Sequence record: PQ724393.1 | DNA from: a phage | DNA length: 64,000 nt | Reading direction: 5' to 3' (one strand) | Shown: positions 5,768 to 57,604 of the stretch, piece by piece | Numbering within the stretch: the stretch's first letter is position 1 | Layout of the letters: every line of letters begins with the position of its first letter | The notes under the pieces: model-generated | What the model was told of the DNA's origin: nothing | The model's input: only the letters and a program-made list of their open reading frames with translations | Databases searched by the model: none | Program-made: the position numbers and the translations under genes

Positions 5768-6101
5768 AATTAGACCGTAGCTTTTTAATGGCAGTAAAAT
5801 CTTTGCGAATATCGAGAACCAATTTGTAAAGATGTTTAATTGTATCTGTATCAAAATATGATACCGCGCAACGTGATTGGCGAATATCTTCTAATGAATA
5901 TTTGCTTTCGCAAGACCCGTATCCAATGATACCACTAATGCACTTGTCATTAAGCGTATATTTCTGTGGGCCATCAATATTATTTTTAGGATAGATATAA
6001 AGGCTCCAATCAAATTTTTGTTCAAGCGTATTAACCTTAACTTCAAGAATCAGTTCAGGATGGGCATCATCTTTAGCAAAGCAAGTGTATTCAGTAAGCA
6101 T
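5745..6101 (-). CDS. Hypothetical protein
   Basis: 118 aa ORF, SD-like GAGGTG upstream, stop/start overlap with upstream gene. Confidence 0.45.
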
Positions 6102-6346
6102 TATAGCACCTCAACATGTGTGATATCGTTTGGCCAAATGATGTCATGATGGTTATAATAGGAAATATCGCCCTTAACAAAACGATAATTATTACCACGG
6201 CCTTGCTCCCAGGCCAAAGATACCTTATGGAGGTTTTCATAACGGTCCCTGACCCAAAAGGATTCGTCATATGCTGTATTATTATAAAGTCTATCCAATT
6301 CTGCTTCGGTACCAGTAAACTCTTTTAAATTGATAGTAATTTGCAT
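6101..6346 (-). CDS. Hypothetical protein, 81 aa (track ORF 6101-6583 trimmed to internal Met)
   Basis: Strong SD GAGGAAAA 6 nt before internal ATG; longer reading overlaps neighbouring gene. Confidence 0.4.
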   Translation of the reverse strand: MQITINLKEFTGTEAELDRLYNNTAYDESFWVRDRYENLHKVSLAWEQGRGNNYRFVKGDISYYNHHDIIWPNDITHVEVL

Positions 6347-6356
6347 TATATTTTCC

Positions 6357-6596
6357 TCACGCTTTCTTAGCGATTTTCCAGTCAGCTTTAAATTGGTCGA
6401 CATCAGAGTGGTGAATCCAGAAACCAGACGAGCTACCATCTTCATAAAGAGGACAACCATCACACTCATCTTTCCAACCCATCGCGCATAAAGCTTGTTC
6501 AGCTTTTTCCAGAGCTTCCGGGTTATTACCTTGGATTGTGAAGTACCATTTGCCTTTAACTTCAGAATCGTTGATTGATTCACGTTGTAATTTCAT
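6357..6596 (-). CDS. Hypothetical protein, 79 aa
   Basis: SD AAGGAGAA before ATG at 6596; early promoter just upstream. Confidence 0.45.
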   Translation of the reverse strand: MKLQRESINDSEVKGKWYFTIQGNNPEALEKAEQALCAMGWKDECDGCPLYEDGSSSGFWIHHSDVDQFKADWKIAKKA

Positions 6597-6620
6597 TTTA
6601 TTCTCCTTAGTTGACAAGGC

Positions 6621-6651
6621 TATAGTATCACTACCATAGCCTGATGTAAAC
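6621..6651 (-). promoter_or_regulatory. T4-type early promoter (GTTTAC -35, 18 nt spacer, TG-extended TACTAT -10)
   Basis: Minus-strand GTTTAC at 6646-6651 and the conserved TGATACTATAG block. Confidence 0.5.
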
Positions 6652-6879
6652 TTATTTTTGAATTAAGCCCATATAAAATTTAGTGTCTTCCGGGTGCATA
6701 CCGTCGCAATACTCGTCAGCCATAAAGCGGGTAAGGTCTTCAAGAGGACCTTGGACTTCAATTTGCATACTACAGAATTGAGTATCTTTAATATGGGTCA
6801 CAACTAAAGAAGGATAACGATTACGGATAACTTCGTAAGTGTATTCAAAATCAACGATATCAATATTAACCTTAGCCAT
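6652..6879 (-). CDS. Hypothetical protein, 75 aa (start moved to MAKVNID)
   Basis: SD GAGGAAAA before the internal ATG; upstream ATG lies in the leader. Confidence 0.45.
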
Positions 6880-6910
6880 TTTATTTTCCTCACTCATTAG
6901 TTGATAGGTC

Positions 6911-6940
6911 TATAGTATCATGTTTAAAGGCGTTGTAAAC
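6911..6940 (-). promoter_or_regulatory. T4-type early promoter
   Basis: GTTTAC (6935-6940), 17 nt spacer, TGATACTATAGACCTATCAACT block. Confidence 0.55.
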
Positions 6941-6942
6941 AT

Positions 6943-7215
6943 TTATTTTTGAATTTTATCAAGCCATTTACCAAGTTTAATCATTTCTTTGGTAGCTTTT
7001 TCCATACTTCTGAATTTAACCAGTAAAGGTTGTGAATCAACACCCATAACTAAGGTGGTTACAAGACTATGTTCACCTACAAGCCATAATGAATAAGTTT
7101 GGATATCGAGCCCGTAATTTCGGTCTTTATGAACTCGTACGCCCATAACTTCAAACTGTTCGCTGGCTTTTTCTACGGCATCCAGGAAATCATCTTTAGT
7201 CATGTTAAATTCCAA
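6943..7215 (-). CDS. Hypothetical protein
   Basis: 90 aa ORF, overlaps upstream gene by 11 nt (coupled). Confidence 0.45.
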   Translation of the reverse strand: MEFNMTKDDFLDAVEKASEQFEVMGVRVHKDRNYGLDIQTYSLWLVGEHSLVTTLVMGVDSQPLLVKFRSMEKATKEMIKLGKWLDKIQK

Positions 7216-7567
7216 AGGTAGCTTTAATCAAGGCAACAACTTCTGCCGCATTTTTATGATTGACTTGTACATGAATGGTTTGGGTATCTATTACAGGGGT
7301 ATCATCTACTTCTATGAAGTGTTTGAATTCCCATTCAGCGAGTTCAAAATATTCATCAGCATTATCTAGGCTATCTAAGATAGTACCGTCTTTCATTTCA
7401 ACTTTTTCAACAAAATAATCACCGTCGATATAACACATATCCAGGACTTTAAAGGAACCACCGTGTTGTTCCATCAGTTTGACCATACGTGAGTTATCGT
7501 CAGGACTACCCTCAATGAATTTTCTTTTAGAAGAAGGGTCTAATGCGTAAGTTTTACCAGTTTCCAT
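7205..7567 (-). CDS. Hypothetical protein
   Basis: 120 aa ORF, SD GAGGAAAT upstream, downstream of an early promoter. Confidence 0.45.
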   Translation of the reverse strand: METGKTYALDPSSKRKFIEGSPDDNSRMVKLMEQHGGSFKVLDMCYIDGDYFVEKVEMKDGTILDSLDNADEYFELAEWEFKHFIEVDDTPVIDTQTIHVQVNHKNAAEVVALIKATFGI

Positions 7568-7594
7568 TTTTATTTCCTCATGTAGTTGATAAGT

Positions 7595-7625
7595 CTATAG
7601 TATCATGTTTAAAGGCATTGTAAAC
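7595..7625 (-). promoter_or_regulatory. T4-type early promoter
   Basis: GTTTAC (7620-7625) plus TGATACTATAGACTTATCAACTAC block. Confidence 0.55.
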
Positions 7626-7641
7626 CATTAAATGCCAAAAA

Positions 7642-7661
7642 GGGAAGACCGAAGTCTTCCC
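7642..7661 (-). terminator. Hairpin GGGAAGAC-UUCG-GUCUUCCC downstream of gene 32
   Basis: 8-bp stem with UUCG tetraloop immediately 3-prime of the gp32 stop, followed by a U-rich stretch. Confidence 0.5.
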
Positions 7662-7677
7662 ATTATAAATCAATAAC

Positions 7678-8583
7678 TTATAGACCAGCTAACAAATCGT
7701 CCAGACCGTCGTCATCAGAAGGACTTACTGACGGCTCAGGAGTAGTGGAACGAGCAGGTGTAGACGGTTTGGAATCATATGCATCAAGGTCTGCACTGAA
7801 TGCGTCCAGGTCATCACCAATCTTATCAGCGGCTGCAGAAGCTTTAGCGGCAGCACCACCAAGAGCAGCTGTACCAACAACTTTCTTAAACTTGGCTTCG
7901 TTAGTTTCGAATGATTTGAAATCGAGCAGTTTAGAAAGGTCGTGCATTTCTTCCATCAATTTAGCTTGGTAAGCTTCGTCATTGATGTTAGGAATTTCAG
8001 ACTGACCCATGAATTTGGAATCGTCGTAGTTTTTGAAGTCGCCAACTTTCTTAGATTTCAGTACGAAGTTCGCACCATCAAACGGACATGTTACGTCAAC
8101 CGGCACTTCACCAATATCAGTATCAACTTCAACCATCTGGTTGATTTTATCCATAATTTTCTGACCGAAACGGAATTTAAACACTTTACCTTCGTTAGCA
8201 GGCACTGCACTATCCTTAATAACAAGGATGTTAGCCCAGAAGGAAGTTTTACGTTTCATCAGTTTGTATTCGGCATTATTAGTATTAAAAGTATCGTTCT
8301 GGTTCATGTATTTACATACAGGACAAGAATCGAAATCACCGTGAGTAGACGTACAGTTTTCAATATACCATTGACCATTTTTCTTAAAGCCGTGGTTAAC
8401 GAGCTTAATGAATGGAGATGGATTTTCTTCGTTTTTCGAAGGTAGGAAACGAATTACCGCAGTACCAACACCATTGTCATCTTTCAATTTCCATTCAGCT
8501 TTATCATCGGAAGAGAAAGAAGAACCACCTTTCATTGCAGACAGTTGAGCAGCCAGTTGGGAAGGGTCTTTACGTTTAAACAT
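7678..8583 (-). CDS. 32: Single-stranded DNA-binding protein gp32
   Basis: 301 aa, Zn-binding Cys/His region and acidic Asp/Ser-rich C-terminus typical of gp32; synteny 32-59-33. Confidence 0.9.
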
Positions 8584-8672
8584 ATTATTTACCTTAGCAG
8601 ATTTATCAGTTGTATTTTATTGACAGTTTTTAACAGATTGAGTTAGTATATTAACACAGTTGATTTGAAGCA

Positions 8673-9326
8673 TTAAAACTTGCAAGATTTGATAGTTTCA
8701 ATGAACAATTTACGAGCTTCTAAATTATCGATTATAAGAATTTTCTTATAAGCATTTAATTTAGTCGAATACTTAGACCACACTAAATCGTTGGTCTGTT
8801 CATCATGTTTATTTATTATATCCATAAATGAATCAAGCAAAATAAACGTTTCGAACGAAATAACATTCGATTGAAGGAGCTTAAAAATATAGCTCGAGTT
8901 AACTTTTTTATTATACTCAAAAATTTCAGAAAGCGCTTGAACTTCCACTTTCTTACTAAAATAATAAATGTTTTTGATATCATCCTCAAAAACTTGTTTT
9001 ATTCTTTTAAGTCTACCGATATATTCTCGGTAAAAGACTAAGGCGTCAGCATCACTGATGTCGCCAATCCATGCGTCTTGGTTAGCCACCAAGTTACTCA
9101 TGAAGATAAGAGCAAGCTCTTTCAAAGTGTATTTATCACTCAATTTCTCGAAGAAATATTTGTCACGACGTTTTTGGTAAGCCGTATCAGAGATTCGCAT
9201 GACCCAGTTATATTTTATAACGTCGTATTTGGCATTGAAGTGATGTTTGAGCATTAAGTATAGTGAATATACGCTCTTACCATTCACCATACGGTTATTG
9301 TTTGGTGGCATGCGAATCTTAATCAT
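8673..9326 (-). CDS. 59: Helicase loader gp59
   Basis: 217 aa, same length and position as T4 gp59. Confidence 0.75.
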   Translation of the reverse strand: MIKIRMPPNNNRMVNGKSVYSLYLMLKHHFNAKYDVIKYNWVMRISDTAYQKRRDKYFFEKLSDKYTLKELALIFMSNLVANQDAWIGDISDADALVFYREYIGRLKRIKQVFEDDIKNIYYFSKKVEVQALSEIFEYNKKVNSSYIFKLLQSNVISFETFILLDSFMDIINKHDEQTNDLVWSKYSTKLNAYKKILIIDNLEARKLFIETIKSCKF

Positions 9327-10833: not shown

Positions 10834-10864
10834 ATGAACCTCTGTCCAATTAGTGTAGAGGTTC

Positions 10865-10893
10865 ATTATATCATGACCCTAGAAGAAGTAAAC
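10865..10893 (-). promoter_or_regulatory. Early promoter for rnh (GTTTAC -35, 17 nt, TATAAT -10)
   Basis: Minus-strand GTTTAC and exact TATAAT with canonical spacing. Confidence 0.5.
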
Positions 10894-22457: not shown

Positions 22458-22498
22458 AATATTCTCTTCAATTCAGTACGACATCATCTGATAGGGCT

Positions 22499-22527
22499 AT
22501 ACTAACATATCCTTAGGGATTGTAAAC
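22499..22527 (-). promoter_or_regulatory. T4-type early promoter upstream of asiA
   Basis: GTTTAC (22522-22527), 17 nt spacer, TAGTAT -10. Confidence 0.5.
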
Positions 22528-24224: not shown

Positions 24225-24857
24225 TTAAATTGCGTTGGTTACGGTTTTGATAACTTCAGATGATACGTTTTGGAAGTCGATATAAGTATTCTTACCACCA
24301 GTCTTAATCTTAACATCAAGGTTCAAGGAAGTAAACACTTGTTTTTCTTTATCAGTCATATTATAACCGAAGATACGCATCATTCCATCACGACGGACTT
24401 CGATTTGACGAATACCATTGGTGCGTTTAGCGAATCGAACTTCAAGGTTGCTACGGTTTTCAGCAATTTCACGAATCTCGATACGGTCTTCCAACAAAGA
24501 TTTAACTTCATCAGCCAATACCACCATTTCAGGAGTAACACCACGTGAGCTACGCGTTTTACGTTTTTCCAACATCTCTGGAGCATTTTCAGAAGCGAAC
24601 AGGTCGGCAGCTTTTTGAACTAGGTCCATTGCTTCACCTGTAGCCACCAGTCCATCACCAGATTTTTCGATGAATCCTTTCTTAATCAATACACCGATGT
24701 TAGAGTTAACTACCGCAGCACTAAATTGCTCACTCAGGGCTTCACGGACTTCGCCTGAAGTGATGAAGTTATTCTTGATGATATGTACTAAGATAGAAGC
24801 GGTTTTTTCATTCAGGACGTCTTCAGAAGCTTTGATGATGTAAGTAATTTTAGACAT
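24225..24857 (-). CDS. motA: Middle transcription activator MotA
   Basis: 210 aa; MSKITYIIKAS...VNSNIGVLIKKGFIEKSGDGL...RTNGIR...MRIFGY resembles T4 MotA. Confidence 0.8.
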   Translation of the reverse strand: MSKITYIIKASEDVLNEKTASILVHIIKNNFITSGEVREALSEQFSAAVVNSNIGVLIKKGFIEKSGDGLVATGEAMDLVQKAADLFASENAPEMLEKRKTRSSRGVTPEMVVLADEVKSLLEDRIEIREIAENRSNLEVRFAKRTNGIRQIEVRRDGMMRIFGYNMTDKEKQVFTSLNLDVKIKTGGKNTYIDFQNVSSEVIKTVTNAI

Positions 24858-24889
24858 TTTGTATCTCCGATAACCATTTATTTGATAGG

Positions 24890-24921
24890 TCTATAGTATC
24901 ACGTTTAAAGCAGAAGTAAAC
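24890..24921 (-). promoter_or_regulatory. T4-type early promoter upstream of motA
   Basis: GTTTAC (24916-24921) plus TGATACTATAGACCTATCAAAT block. Confidence 0.55.
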
Positions 24922-24944
24922 ACCTTTTTGCACTAAACCAAAAA

Positions 24945-24962
24945 AGGAACCCTAAGGTTCCT
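24945..24962 (-). terminator. Intrinsic terminator AGGAACC-UUAG-GGUUCCU + U5
   Basis: Stem-loop followed by U-run on the minus-strand transcript. Confidence 0.55.
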
Positions 24963-26835: not shown

Positions 26836-27285
26836 TTAGTAAGCCTGCAGAACGAATTTGAAGTTATCAGCCAACATACGGTTCATTTCTTCCAGGGTCT
26901 GGAGATCTGAACTATGGTTGCGAGTGAAAGCCATTGCAATTTGTCCTTTACCAAAACCTGTAGTCAGAGGTTTCATTTTAGAAGCCGGTACATAAAGAAC
27001 TTCATACAGGATACTGTTAGTTTTCATGGTACGGTTGGCTTGAGAACGAGCTGAACGAATATTCTTAAGAACACCATCCAGACCTTGTCCTGAACGCTGA
27101 TTACCTACATAGAAGCGAGCAGCTACGATGCGGTTTTCGCCAACACCTTTAACAAAGAAATAGAAGCCTGGCTGGGCAGAGATTTCTTTAGAAGGCTTAC
27201 CGTTTTGGTATTCACCATTCTTAACATAAGCAACAGTAGTAGCACCTGCAGACAGAACGTTACGGCGAGTCATATAAGTATTCAT
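26836..27285 (-). CDS. ndd: Nucleoid disruption protein Ndd
   Basis: 149 aa, T4 Ndd-like size and position; C-terminus [16 protein letters not shown] recalled as Ndd-like. Confidence 0.5.
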
Positions 27286-27362
27286 ATCAATTTCCTCAGT
27301 AGATTAATGTTTTGTTATCCAGTCAACGAGAACCATTATAACATGATTCTCGAGGTTGTAAA

Positions 27363-27731
27363 CTATTTTTGTAGCTGTTCTAAAATAAATCCGCTCGTAT
27401 AAAAGGAAGCATTATAAACCTTATTCAGTGGGTGCAAAGCACGTCCGTATGTATCACGTAGTTCTTTGATAACATTTTCATAGCTCACATAGTAAGCACT
27501 ACGATAGTCCGGGTCCATGCTCATACGGAATTTGATGAACCGATAAAAGCCTGTTTCCGGATCTTGAACGAAAACGAAATCCGCGCTTGCCATAGTTTTT
27601 GGATTTACGCCTGGAATCATACTTTGATTGAATGATACCGTTGCCTCCTGAAGGCTGAGTTGTTTAAAGAACATAACTTTAGAGTTACCAAAAAATACTT
27701 TAGACATGATATTTTCCTTATTCAGCGTCAA
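27363..27731 (-). CDS. Hypothetical protein
   Basis: 122 aa ORF. Confidence 0.45.
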   Translation of the reverse strand: MTLNKENIMSKVFFGNSKVMFFKQLSLQEATVSFNQSMIPGVNPKTMASADFVFVQDPETGFYRFIKFRMSMDPDYRSAYYVSYENVIKELRDTYGRALHPLNKVYNASFYTSGFILEQLQK

Positions 27732-27930: not shown

Positions 27931-28074
27931 AATATTTTCCTCAGAAGTTAAAGAATACACGTACATGGTCAATCATAAAAACGATTGGGAAAATGCTCAA
28001 TACTACTAACAACACAAACATGTTCCAAATTGCTTTAAGTAAGTTTTTCATAATCATCTCCATTAGTTGATAGG

Positions 28075-28106
28075 TCTATAATATCATGTCTAATGGAGAT
28101 GTAAAC
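28075..28106 (-). promoter_or_regulatory. T4-type early promoter
   Basis: GTTTAC (28101-28106) plus TGATATTATAGACCTATCAACT block. Confidence 0.5.
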
Positions 28107-28454: not shown

Positions 28455-28484
28455 TTTTGTTTCTCCTCATAAGTTGATAGGAAG

Positions 28485-28514
28485 ATAGTAACACCGTCCT
28501 TGGTGTATGTAAAC
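28485..28514 (-). promoter_or_regulatory. T4-type early promoter (variant with CAAGGA...GTGGTA spacer)
   Basis: GTTTAC (28509-28514), TACTAT -10. Confidence 0.45.
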
Positions 28515-33022: not shown

Positions 33023-33359
33023 TTTTAACTACCTCATGTTGAACATATTCTCTGGTAGAACCGAGTTCAGCCAGAATTCTTCTCATAGAACCCATTGTAC
33101 TTTTGTGCTCTCTGTGGCGATACAATATCTCCAGAACCTTTTCCTGGACAACAGGAGAGAGCGCCTGGTTATCTTTAATCTTTAAGGCAATAGATTTTAC
33201 AGCCTTAAGATATTCTAGCCCCTTACCGCTTGTAATCACTACTCCTTCATCTTTACAGTTACGAATAGCGGTTTCCATAAAGGATAAAGCCAGGTTGTCA
33301 GTGTTCACTATACTGTTATCTTGCATAATCATATTCTCACCTCTAGATAATCCTATCAC
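33009..33359 (-). CDS. Hypothetical protein
   Basis: 116 aa ORF. Confidence 0.4.
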   Translation of the reverse strand: MIGLSRGENMIMQDNSIVNTDNLALSFMETAIRNCKDEGVVITSGKGLEYLKAVKSIALKIKDNQALSPVVQEKVLEILYRHREHKSTMGSMRRILAELGSTREYVQHEVVKNDKL

Positions 33360-33383
33360 AGTTTTGTTATGTTGTAAACCCCG

Positions 33384-33401
33384 AAAAGGGCCTTGCGGCC
33401 C
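33384..33401 (-). terminator. Intrinsic terminator GGGCC-GCAA-GGCCC + U4
   Basis: GC stem, tetraloop and U run on the minus-strand transcript. Confidence 0.5.
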
Positions 33402-36317: not shown

Positions 36318-36549
36318 TGTAAGTTTCCTTCCAGAAGTCGGTGCCTTCAGCAGTGATTTCACGGAACACTGCGTAGATAGGATTTTTATCACCTTGATTT
36401 TCATATACATAAACCGACGATAAATGAGAAAACGTATCAGAATGTTCCTTTTGAACCACGATTAAATCAGGGTTGAACAAAACATCTTCAAATTCTTCAC
36501 GAGTCGAGTTTGCAGTGATTTTAGTAGTCATTTTAAATCTCCTTAACAA
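36310..36549 (-). CDS. Hypothetical protein
   Basis: 79 aa ORF, SD AAGGAG upstream. Confidence 0.4.
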   Translation of the reverse strand: MLRRFKMTTKITANSTREEFEDVLFNPDLIVVQKEHSDTFSHLSSVYVYENQGDKNPIYAVFREITAEGTDFWKETYNA

Positions 36550-36692
36550 GCTTTAATTAAAAGATACAGACAGATAACGATAACTGCAATCATAATATAA
36601 GGTGCAAACATTTTTATTCTCCATTTCACTCATTTGTTTTGATAGGGTAATCTTATCACTACCCTACCGTATTGTATACTGTTTTTTAAACT

Positions 36693-37259: not shown

Positions 37260-37332
37260 AATTTTTCTCTCTTGGTTAAAGGTTTATTCTCCATGAGAGC
37301 CATTATAACATGGCCCTCGATAAAGTAAACTA

Positions 37333-38390: not shown

Positions 38391-38414
38391 TTTGTTCTCC
38401 TCATGTTGATAGGG

Positions 38415-38445
38415 TTATAGTATCATGCCATGAGGAGAAGTAAAC
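38415..38445 (-). promoter_or_regulatory. T4-type early promoter
   Basis: GTTTAC (38440-38445) plus TGATACTATAACCCTATCAAC block. Confidence 0.5.
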
Positions 38446-41746: not shown

Positions 41747-41784
41747 AATATTTTTCTCATCTTACGGACGATTAGTTGATATGT

Positions 41785-41815
41785 CTATAGTATCATGTTG
41801 TTTGGTAAAGTAAAC
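41785..41815 (-). promoter_or_regulatory. T4-type early promoter
   Basis: GTTTAC (41810-41815) plus TGATACTATAGACATATCAACT block. Confidence 0.5.
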
Positions 41816-42499: not shown

Positions 42500-42524
42500 A
42501 TTATTCTCCTCAGTCGATAGAAAG

Positions 42525-42554
42525 ATAGTACCACAAGATTCCTTGCCTGTAAAC
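42525..42554 (-). promoter_or_regulatory. T4-type early promoter (variant family)
   Basis: GTTTAC (42549-42554), TACTAT -10. Confidence 0.45.
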
Positions 42555-43126: not shown

Positions 43127-43150
43127 ATGACCTCCAGTGATTTAGAGGTC

Positions 43151-43179
43151 ATTATAACATGAAGGGAGGAGGTGTAAAC
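43151..43179 (-). promoter_or_regulatory. T4-type early promoter (GTTTAC, 17 nt, TATAAT)
   Basis: Exact GTTTAC and TATAAT hexamers on the minus strand. Confidence 0.5.
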
Positions 43180-44777: not shown

Positions 44778-45007
44778 AGGAAACCTCTCACAAATTTTAC
44801 ATCGCCATTGTCTAAGCGGATTTCTGCATTAAATTCTACAGAATTATCTTCATACATCATAAAAGAATGCGTAATAACATCGTCATGATACCCTAACCCG
44901 TATTTAAGCGAAACTTCTTGAGCAATCAAAGCACCTACTGCATTATTAGGTTTAATCCAACGATTTAACATAGTGTTCTCCTCTATAAGATAAAACCATC
45001 TTATCAC
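44774..45007 (-). CDS. Hypothetical protein
   Basis: 77 aa ORF, SD GAGGAG upstream. Confidence 0.4.
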   Translation of the reverse strand: MIRWFYLIEENTMLNRWIKPNNAVGALIAQEVSLKYGLGYHDDVITHSFMMYEDNSVEFNAEIRLDNGDVKFVRGFL

Positions 45008-45027
45008 AGTCTGCTCGTAAAGTAAAC
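44998..45027 (-). promoter_or_regulatory. Early promoter (GTTTAC -35, TAAGAT -10)
   Basis: GTTTAC (45022-45027) with 18 nt spacer. Confidence 0.4.
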
Positions 45028-45036
45028 TGCTAAAAC

Positions 45037-45060
45037 GAAAAAAGGAACCCGAAGGTTCCT
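45037..45060 (-). terminator. Intrinsic terminator AGGAACC-UUCG-GGUUCCU + U6 downstream of soc
   Basis: 7-bp stem, UUCG loop, U-run on the minus-strand transcript. Confidence 0.6.
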
Positions 45061-48513: not shown

Positions 48514-48540
48514 TTCAATCTCCTCGTTAGTTGATAGGTC

Positions 48541-48571
48541 TATAGTATCACCACCATAGACCGTTGTAAAC
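48541..48571 (-). promoter_or_regulatory. T4-type early promoter upstream of sp
   Basis: GTTTAC (48566-48571) plus TGATACTATAGACCTATCAACTAAC block. Confidence 0.55.
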
Positions 48572-49157: not shown

Positions 49158-49487
49158 TTAGATTTCCTCGCAGAAGGCCCATTCAGCATGATAAACCGTA
49201 GCGCCTTTAGTATCATTTAAACAAACCACATCTACCGGAGCAATTACACGATAAAGACGGGGTTCTCCTCCCACTGAACGAGCTGCACGTCCAGCATAAA
49301 TCTTAGCCAAACCGATATCTTCAGTAAAGAACACTCGATTCAGGTTTTTCTTACGACCGGTTTCAGACAAAACTCCTGTTTCCTCAGGAGGACAAAGCAT
49401 ATTACCGATATTAGCAACACTACAACTTCCATGGTAATACACTTTATATTCTGCTTTACAGTCGATGGTTTTCATTTTGTTCTCCAA
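49158..49487 (-). CDS. Hypothetical protein with HGS ... Y ... E pattern
   Basis: 109 aa ORF downstream of an early promoter. Confidence 0.45.
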   Translation of the reverse strand: MENKMKTIDCKAEYKVYYHGSCSVANIGNMLCPPEETGVLSETGRKKNLNRVFFTEDIGLAKIYAGRAARSVGGEPRLYRVIAPVDVVCLNDTKGATVYHAEWAFCEEI

Positions 49488-49496
49488 GTTGATAGG

Positions 49497-49528
49497 CCTA
49501 TAGTATCATGCCTATAGGAGATGTAAAC
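49497..49528 (-). promoter_or_regulatory. T4-type early promoter
   Basis: GTTTAC (49523-49528) plus TGATACTATAGGCCTATCAACT block. Confidence 0.55.
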
Positions 49529-49536
49529 CCTTAAAA

Positions 49537-49557
49537 CAAAAAAGGAGCCGAAGCTCC
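49537..49557 (-). terminator. Intrinsic terminator GGAGC-UUCG-GCUCC + U6 downstream of gene 41
   Basis: Stem-loop immediately after gp41 stop, followed by U-run. Confidence 0.6.
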
Positions 49558-50997
49558 TTAAAATTTGATAGATGCTGCTAAATCGTCTAAATCGCTTCTA
49601 TTAACACGCGACTGGCGATTGACCTCGGCTTGACGATTCATCTCACCTGTAGCCTCACGAACGGTGTTCACTGGGCCTGGGTTAGAATCATCTTCAACTT
49701 CGTACCAACGTTGATTTCCTTTCTTAACACCAATCTTAAATTTGTTGTAGTAGCTCTTATCGCCATAACGAGATTTAAGCTGCTTAACCATCTGCATACC
49801 CATCTGAGCAAACTCTTCTGTCTCGACCACGCCTAACATGAAGTCTGCAGTATGTGCAATACCAAAGGATTCAGCGATATCAGCCATATCGATTTCGGCT
49901 GCAACGTTCGCGCCACGAGTAGTCTGGGCCGCGGTCCACAGCAATAATTTCTTCTCTACTGCAAGGCCACGTAGTTCTTCGGCAACCATCTTAATCAATC
50001 CGTAACTGTTTTCAGAGAAAACTTTCGTACGAGACGATGCACAGATAGCCAAGTAGTCAACGATAACAACCTGAGGGACAAAGTTTTGTTTGAGCTTGTA
50101 TTCGTTTAATAATGCACGGAAGGTATCAGCATTAGCACCACCAGTAGGATACTGTTTAATCTTTAAACGACCTAAAGTAGCAGTTGAACGCCATTTATCC
50201 ATCTTAGCTTTATATTCGGGCCACGAGACATGACCATCATCGATATCATCCAGTGATACGTCCAGAAGGTTGGCATCAATACGCTTAGCACATACTTCCT
50301 CTGCCATCTCCATGGAGATATAAAGAACATCGTAACCGGATTGAAGGTAATCAGCAGCCAATGAACAAAGACCAAGAGACTTACCTACGTTTGTTCCTGC
50401 CAACAATACGTTTTCAGTACCAAACTCGGCACCGCCCTTGGTAATCTTATTCAGAATATTAAGTCGGAATGGAACTTTACGTGCTTTATCGGAATAACTT
50501 TTGAATCGTTCTTCATAGTCATCCATCCAGTCATGACCTAATTCAGAATCGAAACAAATCGATAATGCATCACGCATGATATCTGGAATAGCACCGATAC
50601 CTGGAAGTTTTCTATTTTGTTGCTCAACCGGAAGGTCGGCATTAGTTTGGATTTCAATGATTTTTGAAGTTGCATTATACATCGCTGCTTTCTGAACGTA
50701 TTTCTCCGTCTCTTTAACCAACCATTCTTGGTCTTCAGGTCCGGCATTCAGCGAACTTAAAAGCTCTTTAGCGCCTTGGTGTTCAACTTCCGAAAGCGTA
50801 CTGTTATCTAATGCAATGCTCAGCGCGTTCTTAGAAGGCACTGCATTATATTCATTGACATGTTTTTTAATTTCTTTGAAAAGGGTCTTTGCAGGACCCT
50901 GGTCAAAATAAGAATCATTCATATAAGGCCAGACCTTAGTGAAATAATCACTATTGCCTAGCAGTTGAGCCAAAATAGTTTCTACCACTTCCACCAC
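49558..50997 (-). CDS. 41: Replicative DNA helicase gp41 (DnaB-like)
   Basis: 479 aa; Walker A GTNVGKS and DnaB-family motifs. Confidence 0.9.
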   Translation of the reverse strand: MVEVVETILAQLLGNSDYFTKVWPYMNDSYFDQGPAKTLFKEIKKHVNEYNAVPSKNALSIALDNSTLSEVEHQGAKELLSSLNAGPEDQEWLVKETEKYVQKAAMYNATSKIIEIQTNADLPVEQQNRKLPGIGAIPDIMRDALSICFDSELGHDWMDDYEERFKSYSDKARKVPFRLNILNKITKGGAEFGTENVLLAGTNVGKSLGLCSLAADYLQSGYDVLYISMEMAEEVCAKRIDANLLDVSLDDIDDGHVSWPEYKAKMDKWRSTATLGRLKIKQYPTGGANADTFRALLNEYKLKQNFVPQVVIVDYLAICASSRTKVFSENSYGLIKMVAEELRGLAVEKKLLLWTAAQTTRGANVAAEIDMADIAESFGIAHTADFMLGVVETEEFAQMGMQMVKQLKSRYGDKSYYNKFKIGVKKGNQRWYEVEDDSNPGPVNTVREATGEMNRQAEVNRQSRVNRSDLDDLAASIKF

Positions 50998-57544: not shown

Positions 57545-57574
57545 TGTAATTTCCTCATGTAGTTGATAGGAAGG

Positions 57575-57604
57575 ATACTACCACGTTCCTTGTGGTATGT
57601 AAAC
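57575..57604 (-). promoter_or_regulatory. T4-type early promoter upstream of imm (variant family)
   Basis: GTTTAC (57599-57604), 18 nt spacer, TAGTAT -10. Confidence 0.5.

Follow-up and report, generated by a model that had tools for sequence, protein, structure and literature searches.

The repeated elements upstream of minus-strand genes in a 64,000-nucleotide stretch of phage DNA (record PQ724393.1; the window, meaning the whole stretch that was analysed), among them the copy at 6911-6940, are recognisable from their sequence as the ordinary, strong early promoters that a T4-like (JS98-type) coliphage carries. The conserved block that follows their -10 element and crosses the start site is part of the early promoter class consensus in two diverged genera. 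The finding is real, yet it is largely known biology; its main points of interest are the cross-genus identity of the start-site block and the presence of covarying hairpins that overlap the promoters.

Early promoters of a JS98-like phage

Comparison with sequenced genomes assigns the window to a Dhakavirus, a JS98-like relative of T4. Bases 6000-9000 share 92-99% identity with Dhakavirus genomes (JS98, JS10, Bp7 and relatives), with gene 32, frd.2 and gene 59 present, and JS98 is collinear with the entire window, from 138976 across the ends of its record to 33638. The gene order begins with nrdB, frd, 32, 59 and rnh, followed by a plus-strand tail-fibre block (34-38, t), after which come asiA, motA, 52, ndd, denB, rIIB/rIIA, 39, motB, dexA and dda, then modA/B, soc, 61, 41, uvsX, imm and 43, ending at about gene 45. 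The T4 counterparts of these regions are dense in early genes transcribed in a single direction. In a BLAST search with one promoter of 52 nt, the one under study, phage WG01 shows 100% identity; among the genomes and matches listed, there are 16-19 copies per Dhakavirus genome, at most about ten in other T4-like coliphage genomes and one or two in T4-type genomes, as well as single matches, limited to the -10 and the block, in phages of Klebsiella, Acinetobacter and Citrobacter.

A search of the window by motif used the strict pattern GTTTAC-N13-15-TGnTAnnnT, which is blind to the sequence 3' of the -10, and gives 20 exact matches, all 20 on the minus strand, compared with 0.14 expected from dinucleotide shuffles. 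A 21st site, also on the minus strand, carries the variant -35 GTATAC (its -10 starts at 36655). The earlier note on this DNA had described a family of about 16 copies, and each of its 16 coordinates corresponds to a real promoter-like site, with the first base of the -10 at 6627, 6917, 7602, 22504, 24898, 28083, 38422, 41792, 48547 and 49505 in the main group, at 28490, 42530 and 57580 in a second sub-family, and at 10870, 43156 and 45003 in TATAAT or TAAGAT versions; it had overlooked the five at 24312, 27340, 33355, 36655 and 37307. The complete set of predicted promoters is as follows (-10 positions refer to the first base; SD, Shine-Dalgarno sequence).

6608..6651, minus strand: early promoter of the frd.1 orthologue, spanning -35 to +8; -10 at 6627; JS98 orthologue at 145865; SD GGAGAATAAAA fits the RegB/S1 consensus
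6898..6940, minus strand: early promoter of the frd.3 orthologue (the copy named in the earlier note); -10 at 6917; exact consensus block; JS98 orthologue at 146157
7583..7625, minus strand: frd.2 early promoter; -10 at 7602; terminator hairpin of gene 32 upstream (7641-7660)
10851..10893, minus strand: rnh early promoter, TATAAT type; -10 at 10870; JS98 150508
22485..22527, minus strand: asiA early promoter; -10 at 22504; block AGCCCTATCAGATG
24293..24336, minus strand: promoter-like site within the 3' end of motA, 5' of arn.4; -10 at 24312; without the block; kept in JS98 at 163360
24879..24921, minus strand: motA early promoter; -10 at 24898; terminator hairpin upstream; one copy, compared with two in JS98 around orf253
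27321..27363, minus strand: ndd early promoter, TATAAT type; -10 at 27340, enclosed by the inverted repeat CGAGAATCA/TGGTTCTCG
28064..28106, minus strand: promoter of an ndd.4-like ORF of 36 aa; -10 at 28083; spacer ATCTCCATTAG complementary to CTAATGGAGAT (SD)
28471..28514, minus strand: early promoter of sub-family 2; -10 at 28490; in-spacer hairpin ACACC/GGTGT; downstream ORF replaced relative to JS98
33336..33379, minus strand: early promoter with TAGGAT; -10 at 33355; terminator GGGCCGCAAGGCCC upstream
36636..36679, minus strand: early promoter with -35 GTATAC; -10 at 36655, within the hairpin TAGGGTA/TACCCTA; followed by a micro-ORF of 22 aa (36543-36611), then cef
37288..37330, minus strand: motB early promoter (PmotB); -10 at 37307; TGn/-10 enclosed by the 8-bp hairpin GAGGGCCA/TGGCTCTC
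38403..38445, minus strand: motB.2 early promoter; -10 at 38422; spacer TTCTCCTCATG complementary to CATGAGGAGAA (SD)
41773..41815, minus strand: srd early promoter; -10 at 41792; leader matches that of T4 promoter 11827
42511..42554, minus strand: modA early promoter, sub-family 2; -10 at 42530; CAAG..CTTG in the spacer
43137..43179, minus strand: modB early promoter, TATAAT; -10 at 43156
44984..45027, minus strand: mrh.2 early promoter, TAAGAT; -10 at 45003; terminator hairpin upstream; T4 orthologue 15264
48528..48571, minus strand: sp (spackle) early promoter; -10 at 48547; block matches the consensus exactly; GGTCTAT in the spacer pairs with ATAGACC
49486..49528, minus strand: early promoter of an orf34-like gene and dmd; -10 at 49505; terminator hairpin upstream
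57561..57604, minus strand: imm early promoter, sub-family 2; -10 at 57580; spacer hairpin ACCAC..GTGGT

All of the features that define the T4 early promoter family at the level of sequence are present in this set. A GTTTAC-like -35 lies at -36 to -31 (exact in 20 of 21 sites, GTATAC in the remaining one), the spacer measures 17-18 nt, and TG at -15/-14 together with T-12, A-11, A-8 and T-7 is found in 21 of 21. The A-rich, UP-like stretch 5' of the -35, in which A is enriched from about -38 to -42 and which often holds the stop codon of the preceding gene, contributes at most 0.9 bit and is weaker than the core elements, as it is in T4. The genes downstream are orthologues of frd.1/2/3, rnh, asiA, motA, ndd, ndd.4, cef, motB, motB.2 and srd, and further of modA, modB, mrh.2, sp, the dmd region and imm. 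Several sites have T4 orthologues that are themselves early-type promoters with similar leaders, and the positional orthology extends to matches with the leaders of T4 promoters 8194, 11827, 15264 and 7191. The proposal that these are early promoters of the sigma-70 type with a TG-extended -10 is supported, and the start sites and early timing in the window phage are predicted from homology with T4. T4 early promoters, which have reportedly been described by Liebig and Ruger in 1989, by Wilkens and Ruger, and by Miller et al. in 2003, are used by the unmodified host sigma-70 polymerase immediately after infection, and some copies are stimulated by Alt ADP-ribosylation.

The conserved block crosses the start site

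Alignment of the 21 window promoters on their -10 elements yields the block consensus AGACCTATCAACTA, which spans -6 to +8, holds 6.6 bits and reads AGACCT/ATCAACTA when the start site is marked by a slash. Numbering is based on the label Pe133295 of the T4 record, which stands on the A seven nt after a TATTAT -10, so that the A of ATCAAC becomes +1 of the consensus; the earlier expectation of a start 6-8 nt after the -10 agrees with this label. The information peaks at C-3, C-2, T-1, T+2, C+3 and C+6 and is about zero past approximately +10, with the exception of the Shine-Dalgarno purines at about +11 to +16. Conservation had previously been described as running past the -10 into +1 to +15; it does cross the start site, reaching about +8, but since the profile is flat beyond about +10 there is no continuous conservation to +15. 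The near-identity of the copies is illustrated by the 23-mer TGATACTATAGACCTATCAACTA, which has 8 matches in the window at three or fewer mismatches where none is expected.

The block stays in fixed register with the -10 and not with translation signals: among the close-coupled genes the ATG follows the -10 at anything from 17 to about 49 nt. The motif CTATCAAC occurs nine times in the window, seven times within promoters at a constant distance from the -10; the two occurrences outside promoters are at chance level (2.6 expected), and the block was accordingly rejected as a free-standing motif. It was likewise rejected as a general feature of -10 usage, as candidates for middle-type promoters (MotA box with a -10) lack it in both the window and T4. 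Copies without the block are found among the TATAAT, TAAGAT and TAGGAT types (10870, 27340, 37307, 43156, 45003 and 33355), and the existence of such good promoters indicates that the block is not required for the class.

The same strict pattern, applied to 127 kb of the T4 genome, gives 31 sites, 31 of 31 on the minus strand, and their consensus after the -10, AAACCTATCAACTA (6.0 bits), is identical to that of the window at 13 of 14 positions. The matrix derived from T4 assigns the 21 window promoters a mean score of +3.98, compared with -9.68 for the sequences that follow other TAnnnT hexamers (p=1e-7), and for the window matrix applied to the T4 promoters the p value is 9e-15. Individual T4 promoters illustrate the agreement, those at 27056, 53919, 55360, 163649 (motA) and 167062 reading TACTATacaaCTATCAACTAc and that at 65390 (denV) reading TACTATAGACCTATCAACTAc. 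The notion that the block is something special to this phage does not survive the comparison, since T4's own early promoters carry the same block consensus.

In addition to the -6 to +8 consensus, the two phages have in common the orientation of the promoters, the sets of early genes behind them, and the elements of the promoter itself, T4 early promoters likewise comprising a GTTTAC -35, a spacer of 17-18 nt, TGn, TAnnAT and an A-rich upstream stretch. The spacer is 17 nt as often as 18 nt in the window but nearly always 18 nt in T4, the base at -13 is A in the window and G in T4, and the discriminator reads AGACC in the window, whereas ACAAC or TACCC is found in T4. The block also looks sharper in the window than in T4, because about ten of the window copies are near-identical over 23 nt. 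A consensus extending beyond the sigma-70 and UP elements has been noted for T4 early promoters (Hinton 2010, PMC2988021), and RB69, RB49 and 44RR have been reported to favour C at -3 to -1 (Nolan 2006, PMC1524935). The extended conservation is shared by the class, partly documented, and not peculiar to the window genome. In practical terms, annotation gains a ready matrix, covering -35 to +8, with which the early transcription units of JS98-like and T4-like phages can be located.

A probable role for the block at initiation

The explanation that we favour, and consider likely, is that the repeats are sigma-70 early promoter cassettes in which the block acts mainly at initiation, with recombination reinforcing the near-identity of the copies. 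The repeats belong to the 'UP / -35 GTTTAC / TGn / -10' class, which serves the host polymerase right after infection. The effect of the block on polymerase or RNA that we infer would be as follows. It would supply the discriminator, the start site and the first transcribed positions of a sigma-70 promoter that is over-anchored. With a pyrimidine at -1, a purine at +1 and a transcript beginning AUC, initiation would be fixed on the A seven nt past the -10, behind a discriminator that in many copies has G at -5, and the common initial transcribed AUCAAC would support a precise start as well as clearance despite the contacts made through UP, -35, TGn and -10. A secondary effect would be that all early mRNAs share a short, unstructured 5' end ahead of the putatively RegB-sensitive SD.

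In the strong phage early promoters T5 N25 and T7 A1, late steps of initiation are sensitive to the sequence between +1 and +20, and the T7 A1 transcript also starts AUC; effects of downstream or initial transcribed sequence have reportedly been described by Kammerer et al. in 1986 and by Hsu and co-workers. The resemblance of the T4-type block to these cases would be one of analogy, that is, strong promoters with information past the -10, and the sequences are not homologous. No mutational data on the positions of the block were found in the literature searched, and its function has apparently never been dissected before; the shared -6 to +8 block offers a cheap test case for the tuning of over-anchored promoters 3' of the -10.

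The earlier note had suggested an RNA 5'-end element, in which case the transcribed part, AUCAACUA and onwards, would be an unstructured, G-poor leader that sets mRNA stability or the loading of 30S/S1. Positions +1 to +8 are indeed conserved, and are poor in G in both phages (11% G in the window, 9% in T4); the leaders are short, with the SD mostly unpaired in the promoter's own transcript (probability about 0.63), and the next SD is by sequence match a RegB/S1 site, S1 being known to bind A/U-rich single-stranded RNA. However, the most strongly conserved positions, -3 to -1, are untranscribed, so that an RNA element cannot account for everything, and the block keeps its register with the -10 rather than with the SD or ATG. 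The block furthermore forms no secondary structure in the promoter's own transcript, and a known RNA family in the leader was rejected, as a scan of the whole window at the Rfam gathering threshold returned zero matches. Taken as the main function of the block, an RNA element is quite improbable.

Also considered was a binding site for a phage factor specific to early promoters, serving for example their rapid shut-off. Such a site would account for a block that is confined to the early class and not seen in the MotA-box candidates, and how early promoters are shut off has been described as incompletely understood (Uzan and Miller 2010, PMC3014915). Yet the block has no dyad or repeat symmetry, lies within the footprint of RNA polymerase and is missing from early promoters of the TATAAT type, and no candidate factor was identified. 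This reading is held to be very improbable.

Exchange between promoter copies

The near-identity of the copies is owed in part to exchange between them, a contribution that the earlier note had missed. The motA promoter region of the window (24881-24921) aligns to two JS98 positions that border orf253; JS98 has two promoter copies with identical spacers around this ORF, and the window has one copy and no ORF. At 6917 the spacer, AACGCCTTTAAACA, nearly duplicates that of the neighbouring promoter at 7602 and differs at 7 of 14 positions from the one in the orthologous promoter of JS98, AAGGTCTATAGGCA, which indicates gene conversion. Behind 28490 the ORF has been swapped between the window and JS98, with breakpoints at the leader and at the end of the ORF. 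The hydrophobic 22-aa micro-ORF behind promoter 36655 is absent from JS98 at that locus, but an unannotated T4 ORF, identical to it at 18 of 22 residues, lies at another locus behind early promoter 146119, which has the same promoter hairpin arms as 36655. Recombination or gene conversion between copies renders the copies within a genome more alike than function alone requires, and in the favoured account it would also move, delete and swap the small ORFs behind them.

These footprints bear on the view that the block has no function of its own and is a patch of homology, maintained by concerted evolution and hitch-hiking with the promoter. In addition to the exchanges themselves (the spacer shared by 6917 and 7602, the orf253 duplication, the ORF swap at 28490 and the mobile micro-ORF cassette), recombination between such cassettes is documented in the papers on PeSLs, the promoter-early stem-loop cassettes of T4-type phages (Arbiol 2010, PMC2839356; Comeau 2014, PMC4122927), and the lack of the block in middle-type candidates is as expected for a sequence spread by copying within one family. 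Counting against the favoured account, a hand count puts the difference in the block between orthologous promoters of the window and JS98 at about 8%. This pace is not clearly below that of the genome on average, so purifying selection on each copy is not strong. Against hitch-hiking stands the near-identical block consensus of T4 and the window, with matrices that predict one another. Homogenisation within a genome cannot hold two diverged lineages alike in the absence of selection or frequent exchange between phages, and recombination of this kind cannot by itself explain a consensus common to T4 and the window phage. Moreover, the promoters at 6917 and 48547 share an identical 23-mer despite wholly different spacers and leaders. 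Hitch-hiking as the full explanation is therefore unlikely, and the reading in which the block acts mainly at initiation is retained.

In comparative genomics the window cassettes appear to behave like PeSLs, with which they share the composition of AT-rich region, early promoter, SD and start codon, as well as the insertion, deletion and swapping of small ORFs among close relatives, as seen in the comparison of the window with JS98 and T4. The matrix would accordingly also flag likely swap points of small accessory ORFs. PeSLs are further characterised by mini-circles excised through recombination between flanking copies. The two differ in the position of their stems. PeSLs have a stem-loop just 5' of the promoter, where a terminator is found in 5 of 21 window copies and nothing of the kind in most, whereas the conserved stems of the window overlap the promoter itself, the spacer pairing with -7 to +8 or with the SD.

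Terminators, leaders and predicted RegB/S1 sites

The full cassette comprises, in order, the A-rich stretch, -35, spacer, TGn, -10, block, a short G-poor leader, a GGAG SD and the ATG, the last typically about 25-35 nt past the -10. A clear GC-rich hairpin with a T-run lies 8-22 nt 5' of the -35 in the five copies with a terminator (49505, 45003, 33355, 24898 and 7602), and three of these five terminators resemble one another (AAGGAACC-TTCG-GGTTCCTT and variants). Downstream, the SD reads GGAG or GAGG, with an A-rich tail behind it. In several leaders (6627, GGAGAATAAAA; 38422 and 49505, GGAGAACAAAA; also 42530) the SD and tail fit GGAGRAYARAA, the consensus for RegB/S1 cleavage, for which the site GGAGAAUAAAA is given (Durand 2006, PMC1702504). 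RegB is also reported there to cut at the motB.2 site of T4, to which the window site at 38422 is orthologous. The window elements are predicted sites, being sequence matches, and they lie 3' of the conserved block and separate from it.

Hairpins overlapping the promoters

Many spacers show specific complementarity to what follows them, either immediately 3' of the -10 or in the SD region, as demonstrated by a permutation test in which each spacer is paired with its own downstream sequence (cis) or with that of another promoter (trans). In the window the mean duplex energy is -7.9 kcal/mol in cis versus -6.1 kcal/mol in trans (p=2e-4), and 7 of 21 cis pairs reach -10 kcal/mol or below, compared with 12% of swapped pairs. 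The effect is also seen in T4, with -9.65 versus -5.97 kcal/mol (p=2e-4) and 12 of 31 cis pairs at or below -10 kcal/mol, compared with 8% of swapped pairs.

The motB promoter provides the clearest case. Its orthologues were sampled from Dhakavirus, VR-type (Gaprivervirus) and T4-type genomes, the Gaprivervirus loci, which have AG for TG at PmotB and in which the strict pattern finds no promoters, being used for covariation only. An 8-bp helix joins spacer positions -22 to -15 to -7 to +1, with TGn and the -10 in the loop; 80 of 80 cells are paired, and five of the eight pairs vary on both sides. The covariation score of 0.65, compared with 0.34 in shuffles, is reached by none of 500 shuffles, and registers slid by 1-3 columns show pairing of just 32-45%. 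The non-Watson-Crick pairs of this helix are all G.U on the sense strand. Of 22 strong stems, 19 fold better on the sense than on the antisense strand, an observation that is confounded by G/U content and is supportive only.

Since the promoter's own transcript starts within or after the 3' arm, these stems can form only in read-through RNA or in the sense DNA strand. On average the SD is unpaired with a probability of about 0.63 in the transcript that the promoter itself starts and of 0.35 in read-through RNA; in the latter it is fully paired at 43156, 38422, 28083 and 10870. Roughly one case in three or four has the SD itself as its 3' arm. Sequestration of the ribosome-binding site was nevertheless rejected as the purpose of the spacer complementarity (attractive at first sight for 38422, 28083 and T4 denV/regB), as chimeras with swapped upstream halves occlude the SD equally (p=0.97 in the window, 0.64 in T4). 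They do so because many spacers carry generic CTCC-like runs, and SD occlusion is hence not specific to each promoter's own spacer; such sequestration may still occur.

Hairpins that sequester the ribosome-binding site and contain an internal promoter have been described for the T4 genes e, soc, 49 and I-TevI (Uzan and Miller 2010, PMC3014915). The arrangement is similar in that the promoter lies inside the hairpin, so that read-through RNA has both arms and the promoter's own transcript is without the 5' arm. It differs in that the internal promoters are late (gp55) in the T4 genes but of the sigma-70 early type in the window. The window stems also mostly enclose the -10 without reaching the SD, and SD occlusion failed the control for cis-specificity. 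Stems enclosing the -10 are not described in the literature searched, the key older papers lying outside its reach.

A tentative reading, possible but less probable than its negation, is that the early promoters have a dual use, the spacer of the read-through RNA pairing with -7 to +8 or with the SD to form hairpins that are themselves under selection. If so, there would be a class-wide layer of RNA structure acting on read-through RNA only. It might, for example, stabilise the 3' end of the upstream message once RegB or RNase E has cleaved, serve as a processing signal or insulate translation, and the spacer 'sub-families' would be explained. Were the -10-enclosing hairpins functional, the classic early programme of T4 would gain a further, post-transcriptional layer, and spacers, which are usually deemed to matter for their length only, could hold a second code. 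In a variant of this reading, a hairpin in the sense DNA strand may aid the promoter itself.

The sub-family marked by CAAGGA...GTGGTA in the spacer, which had been set apart in the earlier note, is genuine at all three of its sites (28490, 42530 and 57580), but the spacer motif is in fact a hairpin, a point that the note had overlooked; the in-spacer hairpin reads ACACC/GGTGT here and ACCAC/GTGGT in T4-type phages. The ndd.4 promoter, too, has a different stem in each group: Dhakavirus carries ATCTCCATTAG/CTAATGGAGAT, and the T4-type phages pair GTTCCTCCG with CGGAGGAAC, U.G variants included.

Spacer complementarity within the early promoters

The spacers of early promoters, that is, the stretches between the -35 and -10 elements, show specific complementarity to the sequence directly 3' of the -10 or to the Shine-Dalgarno (SD) sequence. 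This complementarity is found at the following early promoters:

37288-37330, minus strand, PmotB (early promoter of motB)
27321-27363, minus strand
36636-36679, minus strand
48528-48571, minus strand
6608-6651, minus strand
38403-38445, minus strand
28064-28106, minus strand

At PmotB the -10 is enclosed by an 8-bp helix, 5 of the 8 pairs of which covary across the three phage lineages compared, with exceptions that are exclusively G.U on the sense strand. SD hiding, as a candidate role for the spacer complementarity, did not pass a specificity control.

Exchange between promoter copies

In JS98, two motA-type promoter copies with identical spacers (JS98 163945 and 164270) flank orf253 (71 aa), whereas the window has a single copy (24879-24921) and lacks the ORF, a clear footprint of a deletion or insertion running from one promoter to the other. 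Gene conversion is indicated between the frd.3 and frd.2 promoters, 700 bp apart, because the frd.3 spacer (-10 at 6917; 6898-6940) is nearly a copy of the neighbouring frd.2 spacer (-10 at 7602; 7583-7625), while that of the JS98 orthologue of the former is different and pairs with its own discriminator. JS98 also carries frd.2a and frd.2b in tandem, in place of a single gene in the window.

Neighbouring coding sequences and terminators

Within motA, at the 3' end of its reading frame, there is a full early-type promoter match (24293-24336), which lies about 100 nt upstream of arn.4, is without the start-site block (the conserved -6 to +8) and is kept in JS98. Two adjacent promoters each have the stop codon of the ORF before them (6652-6654 and 6943-6945) within their A-rich upstream element (…ATTCAAAAATAA, with GTTTAC coming 0-2 nt later in both); the sequence that they share therefore reaches into the final codons of the genes upstream.

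Directly 3' of the early promoter with its -10 at 36655 lies a short reading frame:

36543-36611, minus strand, 22-aa hydrophobic micro-ORF, MFAPYIMIAVIVICLYLLIKAC

Its T4 counterpart (18/22 identical; unannotated, NC_000866 about 146015-146083) occupies a different locus, behind T4 early promoter 146119 between frd.2 and frd.1; the cef locus of JS98, compared with that of the window, is without the micro-ORF.

Intrinsic terminators upstream of promoters include three that form a small repeat family (AAGGAACC-TTCG/TTAG-GGTTCCTT, AAGGAGC-TTCG-GCTCCTT):

about 45041-45060, minus strand, repeat-family terminator
about 24943-24962, minus strand, repeat-family terminator
about 49541-49558, minus strand, repeat-family terminator
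about 33387-33400, further terminator
about 7641-7660, further terminator

Candidate middle promoters

MotA-box-like sites, defined as TGCTTyA, 11-13 nt and a -10 (coordinates give its first base), are, from their sequence, candidate middle promoters:

63743, minus strand
35449, minus strand
30730, minus strand
26530, minus strand
13179, minus strand
9984, minus strand
8653, minus strand
41842, plus strand

Site 13179 and its T4 counterpart, 153023, are both antisense within gene 34, and the T4 site is separated by about 75 bp from the point at which oriG (ori34) is annotated, 152947.
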